Source: Phenylobacterium sp. RIFCSPHIGHO2_01_FULL_69_31 | Lineage (GTDB): Bacteria; Pseudomonadota; Alphaproteobacteria; Caulobacterales; Caulobacteraceae | DNA length: 64,000 nt | Direction of reading: 5' to 3' | Assembly (NCBI RefSeq): GCF_001824475.1 | Contig: NZ_MHXN01000011.1 | Coordinates: 7,918-71,917 of the forward strand | In this document: positions 624 to 9,860 of the stretch, one piece after another | How positions within the stretch are numbered: position 1 is the stretch's first letter | Layout: the number at the start of each line of letters is the position of its first letter | Notes under the pieces: model-generated | The model's input: only the letters and a program-made list of their open reading frames with translations | What the model was told of the DNA's origin: nothing | Database searches by the model: none | Position numbers and translations under genes: made by a program

Positions 624-3380
<2,757 letters not shown>

Positions 3381-3451
3381 AGGGAATGTCCGTGAGGCGG
3401 CGATAAGGCCCTTCGCCCGCCTGGAAGAAGCGCTCTTTTGGGGCGTGGGTG

Positions 3452-3479
3452 ACTTAAGGACTGCCCCCGCTCAAGTCAA
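3452..3479 (-). promoter_or_regulatory. Putative housekeeping sigma70-type promoter of secA
   Basis: Minus strand reads TTGACT-N16-TTAAGT about 70 nt upstream of the secA ATG. Confidence 0.5.
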
Positions 3480-3623
3480 CGCGGCGCCCCTGTCAGGGGA
3501 GGGTTCATTGCGGCGCGTGCCCTGGGTTTTGGCGGTTCGAGACGGGCTGACGGCGGTTGTAGGGGGCCGCAAGGCCCGGTCGATACGGACGGATCGACCG
3601 GGCCAGGCCAGGCGTCGGCGGCC

Positions 3624-4535
3624 TTAGCAGAAGGCGGGGGCGACCTGCTCAAGACGGGCGCGAGCGGCCGGGCTCACCTTGCCCATGGCGCCCAGGAAGC
3701 CCTCGTTGCGCAGCGCCGAGCCCAGGAAGGTCCAGCGCTGGGCCTGGTGCTGGACCTCGACGAAGCGCGCCCGCTCGCGCTCGGACAGCGTCCGGCTGAT
3801 AGCCGCCTCCAGGGAGGCGAGATCGAGCTGGGTCTGCTGAGCGAGGCCGCCATCGAGGAAGGCGCCGATCTCCAGGAACTCCTCCACCGCTTGCTCGACC
3901 TGGTCGGGCCGGGCGCGGGCGGCGAGTTCGAAGAACACCAGGGCGTCCAGCTTGGCGTGCTGGGATTCCTCCATCCAGTGGTGCTTCAGCAGGCTCTTGA
4001 ACTGCGGATCCAGGGTGTCGTCGTCGTGGACGCTGTCCAGATAGTGCCGCTGCGTCGCCCACTCGATGCCGAGCACGAAAATCGCCAGGCTGAGGGGGCT
4101 GTGCGCCCGCACGGCGGCGCCGATCTCGTCGGCCGGGCCGATGAAGCCGCACTCGCCCGCGAAGCCTTCGGTGAAGGCCTGGCGGAAGCGCACGAACAGC
4201 TCGATGTGCTTGGCCTCCTCGGCGGCGAACTGCAGCAGCGCCGGCGTGCGGTGCGTGTCCTGGCCGGGGGCCGAGGGCGCCAGGTCCTCGATCACCGGCA
4301 GGATGCAGCGCTCGACCAGCTCGAACATTCCGAGGTAGCCGAAGGCCCGGATGTGGTTGAGCTTGAGACGCTCGGCCGCGGTCAGGAAATCGAGCTCGCC
4401 GGTGCGGGCGAAGCTCTCCGGCAGGAACGGCTTGGAGAAGTCCATGCGCTTCTCGGGGCCGATGATGTCCTCGATGCGCCAGTTGACGCGCTTGGACATC
4501 TCCATGAGCCGTTCGTAGTTGGGTTCCATTTTCAT
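3624..4535 (-). CDS. Ferritin-like diiron protein, AurF/CmlI-like ligand set (303 aa)
   Basis: C-terminal part of the track ORF 3624..4949. The real start is MKMEPNY, preceded by GAGGAGAACGTCAA. Motifs FELVE, EEAKH (ExxH), GIEWATQ and HHWMEESQH (HxxxExxH). Confidence 0.75.
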   Translation of the reverse strand: MKMEPNYERLMEMSKRVNWRIEDIIGPEKRMDFSKPFLPESFARTGELDFLTAAERLKLNHIRAFGYLGMFELVERCILPVIEDLAPSAPGQDTHRTPALLQFAAEEAKHIELFVRFRQAFTEGFAGECGFIGPADEIGAAVRAHSPLSLAIFVLGIEWATQRHYLDSVHDDDTLDPQFKSLLKHHWMEESQHAKLDALVFFELAARARPDQVEQAVEEFLEIGAFLDGGLAQQTQLDLASLEAAISRTLSERERARFVEVQHQAQRWTFLGSALRNEGFLGAMGKVSPAARARLEQVAPAFC

Positions 4536-4603
4536 TTGACGTTCTCCTCGCACGGCCCCGCGCCCCCCGGGCGCAGTCCGCGACGGGTGAAGCGTGCCGC
4601 CGC

Positions 4604-4888
4604 TCAGTTGTTGGCGGTGGTTGGATCGATGATTTGCGAGATCTCGGTGATGTTCGTGACCGGGAACCCGCTCAGTTCGGCGTGGGCGTAGATCGCGTCC
4701 TCGCCATCCGCGAGGTAGATGCAAAACGTCCGATCGCCGGCGACATAGCTGTGCTGCCACTGGACGCTTCGGCCGATCTTTTCGATCGCCTGGTTCGAAG
4801 CGCGAGCCGCCCCGCAAAGCTCGACGATGGACATACCGCCGACGCCGGGCATCTCTCGCTCGACCAGGTAACGTTTGAGTTGGCCCAT
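4604..4888 (-). CDS. DUF4242 / SCO4226-like putative nickel-binding small protein
   Basis: 94 aa with the pattern YLVERExPG...QWQHSYV..DRTFCIYLA..E.AI..HA..SGFP...I.EI, which I recognise as DUF4242. Confidence 0.8.
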   Translation of the reverse strand: MGQLKRYLVEREMPGVGGMSIVELCGAARASNQAIEKIGRSVQWQHSYVAGDRTFCIYLADGEDAIYAHAELSGFPVTNITEISQIIDPTTANN

Positions 4889-4996
4889 GGCGCCGCCCCC
4901 ACATCACCCTTGGAATGATTGAAGTGTCGCCCCGTCGGCCCGGGCGCACAATCTAAACAATCTGGCGCTGACTAAAGGTTTTGCTTAGGATAAGGG

Positions 4997-5950
4997 ATGG
5001 TCGCCCCGACATACCTGCGCTCGCTCCAGGCCCTGGAGCTGGCGGTGCGCGAAGGCTCCTTCGCGGCGGCGGCGGCAGGGCTTGGCATCACGCCCGCCGC
5101 CGTCGGCCAGCGGGTGAAGGCGCTGGAGGACTATCTCGGCGTCGAGCTGCTCCTGCGCGGCCGGTCGGGGATCCAGCCCGCGCCGGGCCTGACCGCCGCC
5201 CTGCCGCACCTGAGCCTGGCCTTCGCGGAACTGGAGGCCGCCGCGCGGGAGCTCGAACTCCAACGCGGCCACGAACTCCACATCGCCGCGGCGTCGGACT
5301 TCGTCGAGCTATGGCTGGAGCCGCGGCTGGCGGCCTTCCGCGAGGCGCATCCGAACATCCGCTTTTGCATCAACGGCGAGGGCGACGCGCCGCTGCGCCT
5401 GGGTCGCGTCGACTGTGAGATCAGCTTCGGCCCCGCGCGCGCCGACGCGCCGACCGACCTGCTGTTCCGCGACTACGTCCTGCCGGTGGCGTCTCCCGAG
5501 AACACGCGGCGCACGGCGCAGCAGACGGCGCGGGCCCAGCTGGAGGGGTTCCCGCTCCTGCACCTGGACTTCTACAAGGACGATCCGGCGGGGCTGTCCT
5601 GGCCGGACTGGGTCGCGTCCAACGACGTGGACCGCAGCGCGCCCGAACGGGGCATGCGCTTCCGCCGCATCACCGCGGCCCTGGACGCCGTGGCGGCCAA
5701 CGCGGGCGTCACCCTCTGCGGGCTGGCGCTGCTGGACGCTCATCTGGCGGCCGGCAGGATTGCGCTGCCCTATCCGCTGGCCATGGGCCGCTGGAGCGAG
5801 CACGGGTTCCGCGCCCGGTTCCGCGCCGACATGGAAGGCCGCCGCCACGTGCAGCGGTTCCGCGACTGGCTGCTGCAGGAGAGCCGCGCCACGGCCGCGT
5901 CGCTGCGCGGGACGGCGGGACGCGAGCCGCCGACGATCGCGGCGGAATGA
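4997..5950 (+). CDS. LysR-family transcriptional regulator (GcvA/AmpR-like)
   Basis: N-terminal HTH LRSLQALELAVREGSFAAAAAGLGITPAAVGQRVKALEDYLG plus a LysR substrate-binding domain. Divergent from the DUF4242 gene. Confidence 0.95.
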   Translation: MVAPTYLRSLQALELAVREGSFAAAAAGLGITPAAVGQRVKALEDYLGVELLLRGRSGIQPAPGLTAALPHLSLAFAELEAAARELELQRGHELHIAAASDFVELWLEPRLAAFREAHPNIRFCINGEGDAPLRLGRVDCEISFGPARADAPTDLLFRDYVLPVASPENTRRTAQQTARAQLEGFPLLHLDFYKDDPAGLSWPDWVASNDVDRSAPERGMRFRRITAALDAVAANAGVTLCGLALLDAHLAAGRIALPYPLAMGRWSEHGFRARFRADMEGRRHVQRFRDWLLQESRATAASLRGTAGREPPTIAAE

Positions 5951-5987
5951 AAAGGGCGGCCGCAAGCCCGTCGCTTGCAGCCGCCCT
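5950..5987 (-). terminator. Intrinsic terminator after the thiolase gene
   Basis: Stem AGGGCGGC-c-GCAAGC / GCTTGC-a-GCCGCCCT, followed on the minus strand by TTTTC. Confidence 0.65.
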
Positions 5988-6043
5988 GTCCTGTCCAGAG
6001 GACGGGATCCCCGCTTCCGTCGGACGGGAGCGGGGCTACCCGA

Positions 6044-7213
6044 CTAGAAGACTTCGAAGAGGCCGGCGCCGCCCATGCCGCCGCCGATGCACATGGAGAC
6101 GACCACGTGCTTGGCGCCGCGGCGCTTGCCTTCCTGCAGGATGTGGCCCGCGAGGCGCGCGCCGGTCATGCCGAAGGGGTGGCCGATGGCGATCGAGCCG
6201 CCGTTGACGTTGTACTTCGCCGGGTCGATGCCAAGCTTGTCGCGGCTATAGAGGCACTGGCTGGCGAAGGCTTCATTCAGCTCCCACAGGTCGATGTCGT
6301 CGACCTTCAGGCCGTGGCGTTCCAGCAGACGCGGGATGGCGAACACCGGCCCGATGCCCATCTCGTCGGGCTCGCAGCCGGCCACGGCCCAGCCCTTGAA
6401 CACGCCCAGGGGGTTGAGCCCGCGGCGCTCGGCTTCCTTGCCTTCCATCAGCACCACGGCGGCGGCGCCGTCCGAGAGCTGGGAGGCGTTGCCCGCGGTG
6501 ATGAACTTGCCCTCGCCCATGACGGGCTGGAGCTTCTGCAGGCCTTCCAGCGTGGTGTCGGGGCGGTTGCACTCGTCGCGGTCGACCACGTAGTCGACGA
6601 TGGACTCTTCCTTGGTCGCCTTGTCGACCGTCTTCATCTTGGTCTTCATCGGGACGATCTCGTCCGCGAACTTGTTCGCCTGCTGGGCGGCGGCCATGCG
6701 GCGCTGGCTCTCCAGCGAATACTCGTCCTGGTACTCGCGGCTGACGTTGTAGCGCTGGGCCACGATGTCGGCGGTGTCGATCATCGCCATGAAGATCGCC
6801 GGGTGCATCTTGGTCAGCTCGGGGTCGAAGTTGTTCGGGCCCGTGCCCATGTTCGGCATCGAGATCGACTCCACGCCGCCGGCCACGACCACCGGGGCGC
6901 CGTCGTTGCGGACGTGGTTCGCCGCCATGGCGATGGTCTGCAGGCCCGACGAGCAGAAGCGGTTCACGGTCACGCCCGAGGCGGTCACCGGCAGGCCGGC
7001 CAGCAGGCCCGCCTGGCGCGCGATGTTGCCGCCGCCGTGGGCGACGTTGCCCATGAACACGTCCTCGATGTCGCCGCCGTCCACGCCCGCCTTGGCCACC
7101 GCGTGCTTCACCGCGTGCGCGGCGATCGACACGGTGGGCGTCATGTTGAAACCGCCGCGGCCGGATTTGGCCAGGCCGGTGCGGGCATAGGAAACGACGA
7201 CGGCTTCACGCAT
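6044..7213 (-). CDS. Acetyl-CoA C-acyltransferase (thiolase)
   Basis: NRFCSSG, NEAFA, GHPFG and MCIGGG catalytic motifs. Start MREAVVV follows a GGGAGG RBS. Confidence 0.96.
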
Positions 7214-7461
7214 TTGGAATAGTCCTCCCAACGAAATGGATTTTTGAGCCCTCGGTCGGGGCCCGGAAAACTCGCCGGCACCTTTGCATCCCGGCGGGAA
7301 AATGGCCAGCCGGGCGAAGCGAATTCTGGTTCCGGTTTGCGGCGCCTGCGGCCGCGGGCTCGCGCCGGATGCGAAAGGGCTTCCCCTTTCCAGGGTCGCG
7401 CACTAGGGGGACGGGCGGTGTCCGCTGACGCCGCGTCTCCGCCCCCCGCAGGGATGACCCG

Positions 7462-8400
7462 ATGGCCTCAGGTCCCTTCCGCATCGCGATGATTGCCGCC
7501 CTGGCGCTGGTCGCGGCCGCCTGCGACCGCGGCGGCGACAGCTCGAGCCCGCCGGAGCGCGGCGACAAGGCGGTGGCCCGGGTCGACGGCAAGACAGTGT
7601 GGGCCTCGGACGTGAAGCGCGAGGCGATCGCCCAGGGCCTGATCGGCGAGGGGGAGCCGCTGGACACCTCGTCGGACCTGTTCCGCCAGATGATGGACCA
7701 GGTGATCGACCAGAAGCTGCTGGCCGCGGAGGCCCAGCGGCGCAAGCTGGACAAGGACCCCCTGGCCCAGCGCCGGCTGACCGCGGCCCAGGATCGGGTG
7801 ATGGGCGACATGCTGGTGGAGACGACGGTCGCCGACGCGGTGACCGAGGACAACATCCGCGGGCTCTACGAGGAACAGCAGAAGCTGGCGCGCCGCTCGG
7901 AAGAGATCCGCGCCCGCCAGATCGTGTTGGCCACCGCGGCCGAGGTGGACCAGGTGAAGAAGCTGCTGGCCGCCGGCGCCAACTTCGAGGCCCTGGCCAT
8001 GGAGCGGTCCCGCGACGCCGCCACCCGCTTCAACGGCGGGGATCTCGGCTACTTCACCACCGACGTCATGCCGGAGGCCTATGAGGCGGCGCTGAAGGGC
8101 GCCAAGCCGGGCCAGCTTATCGGACCGGTGCCTACGCAGGGCGGGTTCGCGCTGGTGAAGGTCGAGGACGTGCGGCAGGAGCAGCCGATTCCGCTGGACG
8201 CCGCCCGCCCTCAGATCGTCCGTTTCCTGACCTACGACCGGATCCGCGACCTGCTGGAGAAGCTGCGGGCCAAGGCCAAGGTCGAGACCCTGATCAAACC
8301 CGAGGCCGGGGCGCCCAAGCCCGTTCCGCCGGCCGACGCCCCCAAGACCGTAGCGCCCCCGGCGCCGGTGACCTCGACCCAGAAGGGAGCTGCTCCATGA
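7462..8400 (+). CDS. PpiC/parvulin-type peptidyl-prolyl isomerase lipoprotein (PrsA-like)
   Basis: Lipobox AAAC, RARQIV, FEALAMERSRD, GGDLGYF, GPVPTQGGF. Its stop overlaps the argJ start (ATGA). Exact start uncertain. Confidence 0.92.
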   Translation: MASGPFRIAMIAALALVAAACDRGGDSSSPPERGDKAVARVDGKTVWASDVKREAIAQGLIGEGEPLDTSSDLFRQMMDQVIDQKLLAAEAQRRKLDKDPLAQRRLTAAQDRVMGDMLVETTVADAVTEDNIRGLYEEQQKLARRSEEIRARQIVLATAAEVDQVKKLLAAGANFEALAMERSRDAATRFNGGDLGYFTTDVMPEAYEAALKGAKPGQLIGPVPTQGGFALVKVEDVRQEQPIPLDAARPQIVRFLTYDRIRDLLEKLRAKAKVETLIKPEAGAPKPVPPADAPKTVAPPAPVTSTQKGAAP

Positions 8401-9860
8401 GCCGCAAGCCCAGCACGCCCGCGGCGAAGGCCGCCGCGCCCAAGCCCGCCGGCAAGGCGTCCAAGCCTGTCGAGGCCGTTGGCGAAGCGCTCGAACGCGC
8501 CCTCGATCCCCTGACCACGGCCCTCAAGCGCGCCGGGCTGAAGCGCGCCGACAAGGCGGCCCGCGCCTTCGACGACCGAACGGCGCAGCCTGCGCCGGCG
8601 GGCGCGGGCAAGGTGGACAAGTCGGCCATGCCGGTCTCGCCGCTGGCCGTGCCGTTTCCGCGGATGAAACCGATCCGGGGCCTCACCATGGCGACCGGCC
8701 GGGCCGGATTCTACAAGCACGACCGCGACGACCTTCTGGTCATGAGCTTCCCCGAGGGCGCGAGCTGCGCCGGCGTCTTCACACGCCACGGCGTGGGATC
8801 CGCGCCCGTCGACTGGTGCAAGCGCCACCTGGAGGCCACCAAGGGCGAGGGCGTGAAGGCGCTGGTGGTCAACGCGGGCTGCGCCAACTCCTTCACCGGT
8901 CGGCCGGGCGCCGATGCGGTCCGCCGGGTCGCCTCGGCGGTGGGCAAGCGCTTCGACTGCCGCCAACGGGACGTAATGGTCGCCTCCACCGGGGTGATCG
9001 GGGTGCTGCTGGACGACACCAAGATCGTGAACCGCCTGGCCGACGTGGAGCACAAGCTGAGCCCCGACGGCTGGGGCGGCGCGGCGCGGGCGATCATGAC
9101 GACGGACACCTTCCCGAAAGGCGCCTACGCGGAAGCCGAGATCGATGGCGTGAAGGTGCGGATCGGCGGGATCTGCAAAGGCTCGGGCATGATCGCGCCG
9201 GACATGGCGACGATGCTGGCGTTCGTGGTGACGGATGCGGCCATCTCGCCGGGCGCGCTGCAGAACCTCTGCAACCTCTACACCCGCAACACCTTCAACG
9301 CCGTGACGGTGGACGGCGACCGGTCCACCAACGACACCCTCCTGCTGTTCGCCACGGGCCAGTCCGGGGCGCCGAAGATCAGCCGCGCGGGCGATCGGCG
9401 CCTGGCCGACTTCCGCGACAAGCTCGAGCAGGTGCTGATGAACCTTGCCCACCAGCTCGTCCGCGACGGGGAGGGGGCGACCAAGTTCATCAAGATCACC
9501 GTGACGGGCGCCGAGAGCGCCGCCTCGGCCCGCAAAATCGCGAAATCTGTGGCCGACAGCCCCCTGGTGAAGACCGCCTTCGCCGGCGAGGACGCCAACT
9601 GGGGCCGCATCGTCATGGCGGTGGGCAAGGCGGACGAGCCGGTCGACCGGGACTCCATGAGCGTGAAGTTCGGGCCGCACTGGGCGGCCCAGGACGGTCT
9701 CATCGCCGGCAGCTACGACGAGGCCAAGATGAGCGACTACATGAAGAAGCAAGAGCTGGAGGTCAGCGTCGATGTGGGCGTGGGCCGGGCCGCCGCCACC
9801 GTCTGGACCTGCGACCTCACCAAGCGGTACGTCGAGATCAACGGCGACTACCGCAGCTAG
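8397..9860 (+). CDS. argJ: Bifunctional ornithine acetyltransferase / N-acetylglutamate synthase with N-terminal extension
   Basis: [28 protein letters not shown] (autocleavage Thr), [37 protein letters not shown]. Confidence 0.98.

Follow-up and report, generated by a model that had tools for sequence, protein, structure and literature searches.

A conserved LysR-DUF4242 gene pair with interchangeable downstream genes, one of them encoding an AurF-like ferritin-like diiron protein, in Phenylobacterium and related bacteria

A unit of three genes was analysed in a 64,000-nucleotide (nt) stretch of the genome of Phenylobacterium sp. RIFCSPHIGHO2_01_FULL_69_31 (contig NZ_MHXN01000011.1, forward-strand positions 7,918 to 71,917; the whole stretch is referred to as the window and its own numbering is used throughout). 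The unit comprises a gene for a GcvA-like LysR regulator and, divergent from it, a gene for a small DUF4242 protein followed by one for a ferritin-like protein of 303 amino acids (aa) with the ligand residues of a diiron centre. An initial annotation, made from the DNA letters and translated open reading frames (ORFs), had described the same compact arrangement, and all three were confirmed as real genes at the coordinates of Table 1. A GTG-extended ORF of 441 aa (3624-4949), which overlaps the DUF4242 gene in another frame, was rejected as an artefact; the 303-aa reading of the diiron gene is correct because its homologues have 303 aa and align from residue 1, and because a GAGGAG Shine-Dalgarno sequence precedes its ATG. 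A contig of assembly GCA_040960375.1 carries the same genes in the same order at 99% identity, and as this order recurs there and in many other genomes, the gene arrangement is not due to chance.

Table 1. Features of the LysR-DUF4242-diiron module and its flanks (positions in the window)
Feature	Position	Strand	Basis or remark
secA, flanking gene	624-3380	-	
GC-rich hairpin just past the diiron stop codon	3573-3604	-	RNA fold
CDS, 303-aa ferritin-like, AurF-like diiron protein	3624-4535	-	ORF and sequence; N-terminus MKMEPNY
Spacer between DUF4242 and diiron genes, 68 nt	4536-4603	-	Sequence
Shine-Dalgarno GAGGAG of the diiron gene	4542-4549	-	Sequence; before ATG at 4535
CDS, 94-aa DUF4242 (SCO4226-like) protein, first gene of the operon	4604-4888	-	PF14026 match
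Divergent control region between DUF4242 gene and lysR, 108 bp	4889-4996		Intergenic alignment
Second conserved block CCAGATTGTTTAGATTG	4949-4965		Intergenic alignment; given in the DUF4242 direction
Putative LysR recognition dyad CTAAAGGTTTTGCTTAG	4972-4988		Near-universal in 78 intergenic sequences
CDS, 317-aa GcvA-like LysR, divergent from the DUF4242 gene	4997-5950	+	PF00126 and PF03466
Hairpin with 15-bp stem between convergent lysR and thiolase genes, right edge of the module	5953-5987		Terminator scan
Thiolase gene, flanking gene	6044-7231	-	

The regulator matched the Pfam families PF00126 (HTH_1) and PF03466 (LysR_substrate) with 53.7 and 64.5 bits, respectively. Its best NCBIfam scores, 141.5 bits for GcvA (cut-off 288) and 135 bits for a choline-sulfate regulator, were both below cut-off; by these profile scores it is GcvA-like, not GcvA itself. 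The region between lysR and the DUF4242 gene was compared in 83 loci, where its length clusters at about 100-115 bp, and the 78 unique sequences were aligned, revealing two conserved blocks. The first, with the consensus CTAAAG-N5-CTTTAG, is a dyad that stands 8 nt before the start codon of lysR and occurs once in the window, 0 occurrences being expected from 100 shuffles. The second, with the consensus AAGA-N4-TTTAGCTTG, lies about 8 bp beyond the dyad on the DUF4242 side and is a candidate activation site that would overlap the -35 element of the DUF4242 promoter. Taken together, the two blocks have the putative layout of a LysR recognition site followed by an activation site over the target promoter. 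A scan of the module for sigma-70 consensus sequences found no promoter, this being a weak test in a GC-rich alphaproteobacterium.

As the spacer between the DUF4242 and diiron genes contains no promoter-like site, these two genes are probably co-transcribed. The spacer folds no better than its shuffled versions (z = -0.5), and in related operons of the same type it measures 66-98 nt. At the far end of the operon the minus-strand RNA of positions 3540-3626 has a folding energy of -40.3 kcal/mol (z = -2.86; 2 of 200 shuffles were equally stable), and the GC-rich hairpin within it, which was not called by the consensus terminator scan and is not followed by a clear U tract, probably forms the operon's 3' end. 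The hairpin at the right edge of the module has its T-run on the minus strand and was assigned by the scan to the thiolase gene; it is probably a terminator shared with lysR.

From the side of DUF4242, encoding contigs from six look-ups and 80 metagenome loci were examined; the genes of related loci were called with a home-made heuristic based on ORFs and GC3, complemented by tblastn with defined queries. An orthologous LysR gene (40-98% identity) in divergent orientation was present at all 71 DUF4242 loci with at least 600 nt of upstream sequence, and the spacer between the two genes was nearly always 94-115 bp long. Downstream of DUF4242 the gene content varied. Of 46 loci whose sequence extended for 2 kb or more on this side, 23 carried the diiron gene and 12 an MddA-type gene, nine loci with both, in the order DUF4242-mddA-diiron, being counted within each of these classes. 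Neither gene was found at 20 loci, a count that may hide small genes missed by the home-made gene calling; this class includes loci in which the gene behind DUF4242 encodes a rhomboid protein, a beta-propeller protein of the ScyD/ScyE kind, an FAD/NAD flavoprotein or an Rv2258c-like S-adenosylmethionine (SAM) methyltransferase, and loci with just an unrelated convergent gene. Stand-alone LysR-DUF4242 pairs were seen in Marinicauda salina, where an unrelated convergent gene lies behind the pair, and in other contigs. The fixed core is hence LysR plus DUF4242; what follows it is interchangeable, the diiron gene being one of several that can take this place.

The identity of the MddA protein, an S-methyltransferase of H2S and methanethiol, was established by its score of 331 bits against NF045656 (equivalog cut-off 270). 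Its gene was found between the DUF4242 and diiron genes in a group of sister operons, at loci L007, L009, L022, L036, L084, L108 and L129, and further at L134, L138, L153, L155, L157 and L163. The MddA-containing operons (Phenylobacterium montanum CP073078, L084) have the same LysR, operator, DUF4242 and diiron subfamily as the window, but differ from it by the intervening mddA, which the window operon does not have. In several operons the gene behind a methyltransferase gene encodes either the diiron protein or a flavoprotein. Literature searches returned no description of a LysR/DUF4242 context for mddA. In a tree of the DUF4242 proteins the same operon types appear as coherent clades, indicating that the operon architectures are stably inherited. 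At L087 and L088 an integrase-core (rve) transposase gene lies upstream of the LysR gene of one unit with ScyD/ScyE-family cargo, which hints that the LysR-DUF4242 unit can move.

From the side of the diiron gene, GTDB genomes, one for each species, were scanned and gave at least 593 loci encoding a relative; the best 80, chosen solely for their similarity to the diiron protein, were analysed together with the 99% identical contig (81 loci). DUF4242 preceded the diiron gene at eight of them, always with the orthologous divergent LysR (58-98% identity). The most frequent same-strand neighbour was the gene of an OsmC-like peroxiredoxin just 3' of the diiron gene (21 of 81 loci). Other neighbours were an extracytoplasmic function (ECF) sigma factor with a Ser/Thr kinase-TPR protein (14 loci, or 36 for a looser kinase cluster) and a Cupin_6-AraC regulator with best NCBIfam resemblance to RclR (10 loci); a set of PhyH dioxygenase, YceI and FAD oxidase genes (5-6 loci) and a sigma-54 activator accompanied by an FAD oxidase of the BBE type (3 loci) were rarer. 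In a neighbour-joining (NJ) tree of 110 diiron proteins, those linked to LysR and DUF4242, comprising the direct type and the MddA type, formed one clade, and those linked to OsmC, ECF or AraC genes formed the other.

Within the subclade of the window protein, the linkage to LysR and DUF4242 was present in 8 of the 10 members of this unbiased sample. The conclusion that the pairing is not conserved, which the eight of 81 loci might seem to allow, was rejected, as the trees place the pairing in one subclade in which it is near-universal. A conserved pairing of DUF4242 with the diiron protein thus holds for the window subclade and fails both in the wider diiron family and at about half of the DUF4242 loci. 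The dependence is one-sided: the diiron subclade needs LysR-DUF4242, the LysR-DUF4242 pair does not need the diiron protein, and other diiron clades do not need DUF4242. The only members of the first clade without LysR and DUF4242 are L005 and L006 (Hyphomonadaceae, Terricaulis), where a divergent DJ-1/PfpI-AraC regulator (GlxA/FtrA-like) occupies the position of LysR, i.e. the regulator was swapped and the enzyme kept.

The diiron loci of the sister clade carry no DUF4242. At L008, L010, L011, L019, L035, L050, L055 and others (Acidobacteriota, Alphaproteobacteria) an OsmC-like gene lies behind the diiron gene, with an ECF sigma factor gene (TIGR02999-type) in divergent orientation and a Ser/Thr kinase-TPR gene upstream; judged by gene content, this seems to be a conserved diiron-OsmC stress unit under ECF control. 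Fusions of the diiron and OsmC domains were also found (P0126 and P0137, of 522 and 505 aa), as were a PAS-HisKA-HATPase-diiron protein of 848 aa (P0232) and a diiron-receiver protein of 459 aa (P0207), the latter two being single representatives that may stem from assembly or gene-call artefacts.

The 94-aa product of the core gene matched PF14026 (SCO4226-like) with 62.4 bits against a cut-off of 28.5. Its subfamily numbered 1840 homologues, the top 120 having 72-99% identity, and their alignment revealed C25, H46, C56, H69, W44 and the C-terminal IDPxTANN as invariant. The AlphaFold model (predicted local distance difference test, pLDDT, 89.9) has the order beta-alpha-beta-beta-alpha-beta, and the best match among structures in the PDB was SCO4226 of Streptomyces coelicolor, the founding DUF4242 protein (4oi6; template-modelling (TM) scores 0.69/0.78, root-mean-square deviation (rmsd) 2.2 A, 20% identity). 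The last eight residues, IDPxTANN, are invariant to the final Asn and yet of low confidence in the model (pLDDT about 49-75), which suggests that the C-terminal tail docks onto a partner.

The initial annotation had mentioned the reported nickel binding of SCO4226 in suggesting that DUF4242 may act as a metal chaperone or redox partner. SCO4226 binds nickel with a Kd of about 10 uM at His-based surface sites (His76, Asp43, Ser46 and others) whose residues are, according to its authors, conserved only within Streptomyces; it has nine histidines and belongs to the Pho (phosphate) regulon. The window protein shares with it the Pfam family and the ferredoxin-like fold, but phmmer found no match between the two sequences, and the window protein differs in having two histidines instead of nine, in its two invariant cysteines and conserved C-terminal tail, and in being obligately paired with a LysR. 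Given the weak, Streptomyces-only nickel sites of SCO4226 and the low histidine content here, the nickel-chaperone idea was rejected, and the label 'nickel-responsive' attached to DUF4242 proteins probably does not extend to this subfamily. The invariant Cys2His2 set could instead form a site for a different metal or ligand.

The obligate pairing at fixed spacing also raises the explanation that DUF4242 is not an enzyme and, by analogy with GcvR, assists the GcvA-like LysR as a sensor or co-regulator, receiving a signal through its Cys and His residues and feeding back on the regulator, with the diiron protein and the other cargo as effectors. GcvR is a small protein of ferredoxin-like fold that modulates GcvA, and the present LysR is nearest to the GcvA subfamily. 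Such a role would agree with the existence of stand-alone LysR-DUF4242 units and with the high identity of the DUF4242 proteins, which is kept to the extreme C terminus and amounts to 72-99% where that of the diiron protein drops to 51-56%. However, DUF4242 and GcvR have no sequence relation, the divergent gene in LysR systems is usually the regulated structural gene, and a stand-alone pair free of effectors would need distant targets; we consider a co-regulator role unlikely.

The 303-aa cargo protein belongs to a large family, with more than 6150 homologues at E = 1e-3 in a 90%-clustered database and 1129 clusters in a 50%-clustered library, 172 of them below 1e-30. It scored 24 bits against PF11583 (AurF), below the cut-off of 29.6 and over residues 16-196 only, and among NCBIfam models it matched none beyond R2lox, at 14.4 bits against an equivalog cut-off of 194. 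Some relatives exceed the PF11583 cut-off (P0168 with 39.9 bits, P0132 with 29.7 bits), and by these scores the clade sits at the edge of that family. Conservation of the presumptive metal ligands was scored on 54 full-length representatives with 27-54% identity. The helix-1 residue E75 was conserved in 50 of them, E107 in 48, H110 in 50 and E158 in 48, and in the motif HHWMEESQH (residues 185-193) H186, E190 and H193 were conserved in 47, 46 and 50, respectively. Since the neighbouring E72 is invariant in close relatives and not conserved across the wider family, E75 was taken as the helix-1 ligand.

These residues make up the AurF-type pattern of three histidines and four carboxylates (E, ExxH, E, HxxxExxH) at the level of sequence. 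The ligand intervals in the window protein, 32/3/48/28/4/3, are close to those of AurF (E101, E136, H139, E196, H223, E227, H230; 35/3/57/27/4/3; PMC11775713) and of DnfA (E88, E123, H126, E182, H209, E213, H216; 35/3/56/27/4/3; PMC9478400). Six residues past E158 on the same helix, His164 was conserved in 54 of 54 relatives and is, besides the start Met, the sole fully invariant residue; it has no counterpart in the published list of AurF ligands and may be a second-sphere or substrate-binding residue.

An AlphaFold model computed with 36 homologues as input (pLDDT 92.6, predicted TM-score 0.90) put each of the four ligand groups on a long helix of its own (residues 53-85, 96-124, 147-169 and 177-206), H186, E190 and H193 lying on the last of these. 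Foldseek searches of the PDB gave the best TM-score with AurF (2jcd_A; 0.67/0.64, rmsd 5 A, probability 1.00) and the best E-value with R2lox (7.5e-5), where the TM-score was only 0.46-0.48; CmlI (5hyh), R2 proteins of class I ribonucleotide reductase (RNR) and acyl-ACP desaturases were further matches. Sequence searches of the PDB with the protein itself, a profile of 54 sequences and the AurF-nearer relative P0168 did not reach AurF or CmlI and gave weak matches to R2lox/RNR-R2 and EncC only. The 303-aa protein is thus a ferritin-like diiron protein with an AurF-type ligand set, from a clade without a studied member at the edge of PF11583. The ferritin-like protein with the extra His of AurF and CmlI that the initial annotation had recognized was borne out by the ligand conservation and the fold, whereas formal membership in the AurF family was not, either by the Pfam score or by the family profile.

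Compared with AurF and CmlI (PF11583; 2jcd, 3chh, 5hyh), the window protein has the ferritin-like helical fold, the 3-His/4-carboxylate pattern at near-equal spacing and the His one turn ahead of the second ExxH in common. Unlike them, it has only 14-16% identity in structural alignments, stays below the PF11583 gathering cut-off, carries the additional invariant His164, has a spacing between helices 2 and 3 that is shorter than that of AurF by nine residues, and is encoded in a LysR-DUF4242 operon outside any biosynthetic gene cluster. R2lox (4xb9, 3ee4) has, besides its Foldseek E-value, weak sequence matches over helices 1-2 including EEAKH, but its superposition has an rmsd above 8 A and its NCBIfam score is far below the equivalog cut-off.

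The surroundings of the module are of a housekeeping kind (window 624-9860), with secA on one side and a block of thiolase, SurA-like peptidyl-prolyl isomerase (PPIase) and argJ genes on the other. The GC content is 0.65-0.74 around the module and falls to 0.61 at 4501-5000, i.e. in DUF4242 and the control region. The named relatives closest to the diiron protein are from Caulobacter and Phenylobacterium, and the sequence of the locus turns up in groundwater and soil metagenomes. Among the genes of the window and in the gene table of the 99% identical contig, no nonribosomal peptide synthetase, polyketide synthase or reductase gene was found near the module, nor were genes of an aromatic-amine pathway or other biosynthetic genes, the neighbours being secA, thiolase, PPIase and argJ. 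A catabolic or detoxifying role is therefore more plausible than one in secondary metabolism, as had been proposed in the initial annotation for the same reason.

On this background we weighed the model in which the 303-aa protein is an arylamine N-oxygenase like AurF or CmlI and DUF4242 its dedicated metallochaperone or redox partner. The ligand motif and the AurF-like fold agree with it, as do the near-constant position of the diiron gene behind DUF4242 in the window subclade, the congruence of the DUF4242 and diiron trees at a coarse level, and the invariant Cys2His2 candidates of DUF4242, which could hold a metal or a cluster. But DUF4242 and LysR occur without the diiron gene at about half of the loci, the sister-clade diiron proteins have no DUF4242, the nickel sites that suggested a chaperone are weak, at the surface and confined to Streptomyces in a protein without pairwise similarity to the two-His window protein, the PF11583 score is sub-threshold, and no aromatic-amine pathway genes lie nearby. 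The partner that DUF4242 keeps without exception is LysR, so a dedicated service to the diiron protein found no support, and there is no sign of an arylamine substrate; the chemistry of arylamine natural products is unlikely for this protein, and the model as a whole appears quite improbable.

An N-oxygenase acting on a non-aromatic nitrogen compound, which would make or remove hydroxylamine-type compounds, was considered separately. DnfA, a hydroxylamine oxidase of Alcaligenes, and the glutamine-amide N-hydroxylase of trichostatin biosynthesis belong to the diiron proteins of the AurF family and show an identical ligand motif; both are reported to act on small non-aromatic N substrates, so the AurF family is not limited to arylamines; the spacing of the motif in DnfA also matches that found here. 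Their partner genes, however, namely those for the ferredoxin reductase-like DnfB, an amidotransferase and a tRNA-synthetase-like protein, are absent from the window locus, and the sequence similarity is too low for an assignment at the level of the PDB or Pfam. We regard this function as very unlikely.

The sister-clade neighbourhoods suggest yet another explanation, that of a protective ferritin-like protein that would counter oxidative or electrophile stress, be it as a peroxidase or oxidase resembling rubrerythrin, by handling iron or by sensing O2 or redox state. It would account for the OsmC-like peroxiredoxin as the commonest neighbour and for the OsmC fusions, for the ECF sigma/kinase and RclR-like AraC neighbours, for the two fusions in which a PAS-histidine kinase or a receiver domain is attached, and for R2lox giving the best Foldseek E-values. 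Against this, the third His is typical, among characterised ferritin-like proteins, of the N-oxygenases AurF, CmlI and DnfA, AurF has the best TM-score, a size near 300 aa, with helices added to the four-helix core, is a trait of substrate-binding oxygenases, and the kinase and receiver fusions, each a single representative, may be artefacts. We regard a purely protective role as having little probability.

The explanation we favour, with a probability of roughly 55%, is that of an inducible two-gene operon under LysR control, with LysR and DUF4242 as its core and an O2-activating diiron oxidase as its cargo, serving in stress or detoxification. The GcvA-like LysR would bind the CTAAAG-N5-CTTTAG dyad in the 108-bp control region and, upon sensing a small molecule, would activate the DUF4242 and diiron genes as one mRNA. 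Induction by a small molecule, as already suggested in the initial annotation, is a reasonable inference from the dedicated divergent LysR and the conserved operator. The ferredoxin-like DUF4242 protein with its invariant Cys25, His46, Cys56 and His69 would have a function of its own, probably the binding of a ligand or metal or a small enzymatic or sensing role. Behind this core the 303-aa enzyme would have been added in some lineages; in others the place is empty or taken by MddA, by a different SAM methyltransferase or by a flavoprotein. Using a diiron (or Mn/Fe) centre, the soluble cargo protein would most likely activate O2 and oxidise a small nucleophilic substrate, and as there is no reductase gene in the operon, the electrons would come from a general cellular reductant.

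The substrate is the weakest step of this explanation. H2S and methanethiol are methylated, and reportedly detoxified, by MddA (PMC11445057). The presence of its gene in operons of the subfamily and, in the sister clade, of genes for OsmC, RclR-like AraC regulators and ECF sigma factors with kinases suggests that the operon responds to some small molecule that is reactive or toxic, perhaps a volatile compound of sulfur, a proposal that must be called doubtful. As a guess, the diiron protein could act on a small S or N nucleophile: either a volatile sulfur compound such as methanethiol or dimethylsulfide, with oxidation at the sulfur atom, or hydroxylamine or a small amine. A bolder version is a long shot: LysR and DUF4242 would form an undescribed, widespread unit for volatile or reactive sulfur compounds, in which DUF4242 is a Cys/His sensor or carrier, the cargo genes provide a methylate-then-oxidise route, and the diiron protein is a new sulfur oxygenase (acting e.g. 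on dimethylsulfide or methanethiol) rather than an N-oxygenase.

Several observations weigh against the favoured explanation. AurF-type enzymes need electrons, and no reductase or ferredoxin gene is present in the operon. As the AurF Pfam score is sub-threshold, oxygenase chemistry is argued from the ligands and the fold, and the contact of H186 with the metal is a prediction from the motif. The link to sulfur is indirect, since MddA occurs at only about one-quarter of the DUF4242 loci, and no mddA was found in the window operon or elsewhere in the 64 kb. The NJ trees carry no support values, and the possible undercount of small genes noted above affects the loci with neither cargo gene. A search for RNA evidence matched DNA metagenome runs only.

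A LysR regulator, a DUF4242 fold and a 3-His ferritin-like diiron protein are each of a known kind. Literature searches found no description of a LysR-DUF4242-diiron operon, of this DUF4242 subfamily or of the diiron clade, and the obligate LysR-DUF4242 unit with its operator, the interchangeable cargo and the link to MddA appear to be undescribed. The DUF4242 subfamily, which comprises about 1800 protein clusters and occurs in Alpha- and Gammaproteobacteria, and the diiron clade are both without a studied member and both common in soil and groundwater bacteria. A defined regulon unit consisting of a regulator, an operator, a core gene and interchangeable cargo is now available, and Phenylobacterium montanum (DUF4242-mddA-diiron), Sphingosinicella terrae (DUF4242-diiron) and Marinicauda salina (DUF4242 alone) are cultivable hosts for direct functional tests. 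If the diiron enzyme acts on a substrate, 3-His diiron chemistry would extend beyond natural-product N-oxygenation, and if the MddA link is true, a regulated oxidative step would be added to the bacterial cycling of methanethiol and dimethylsulfide.

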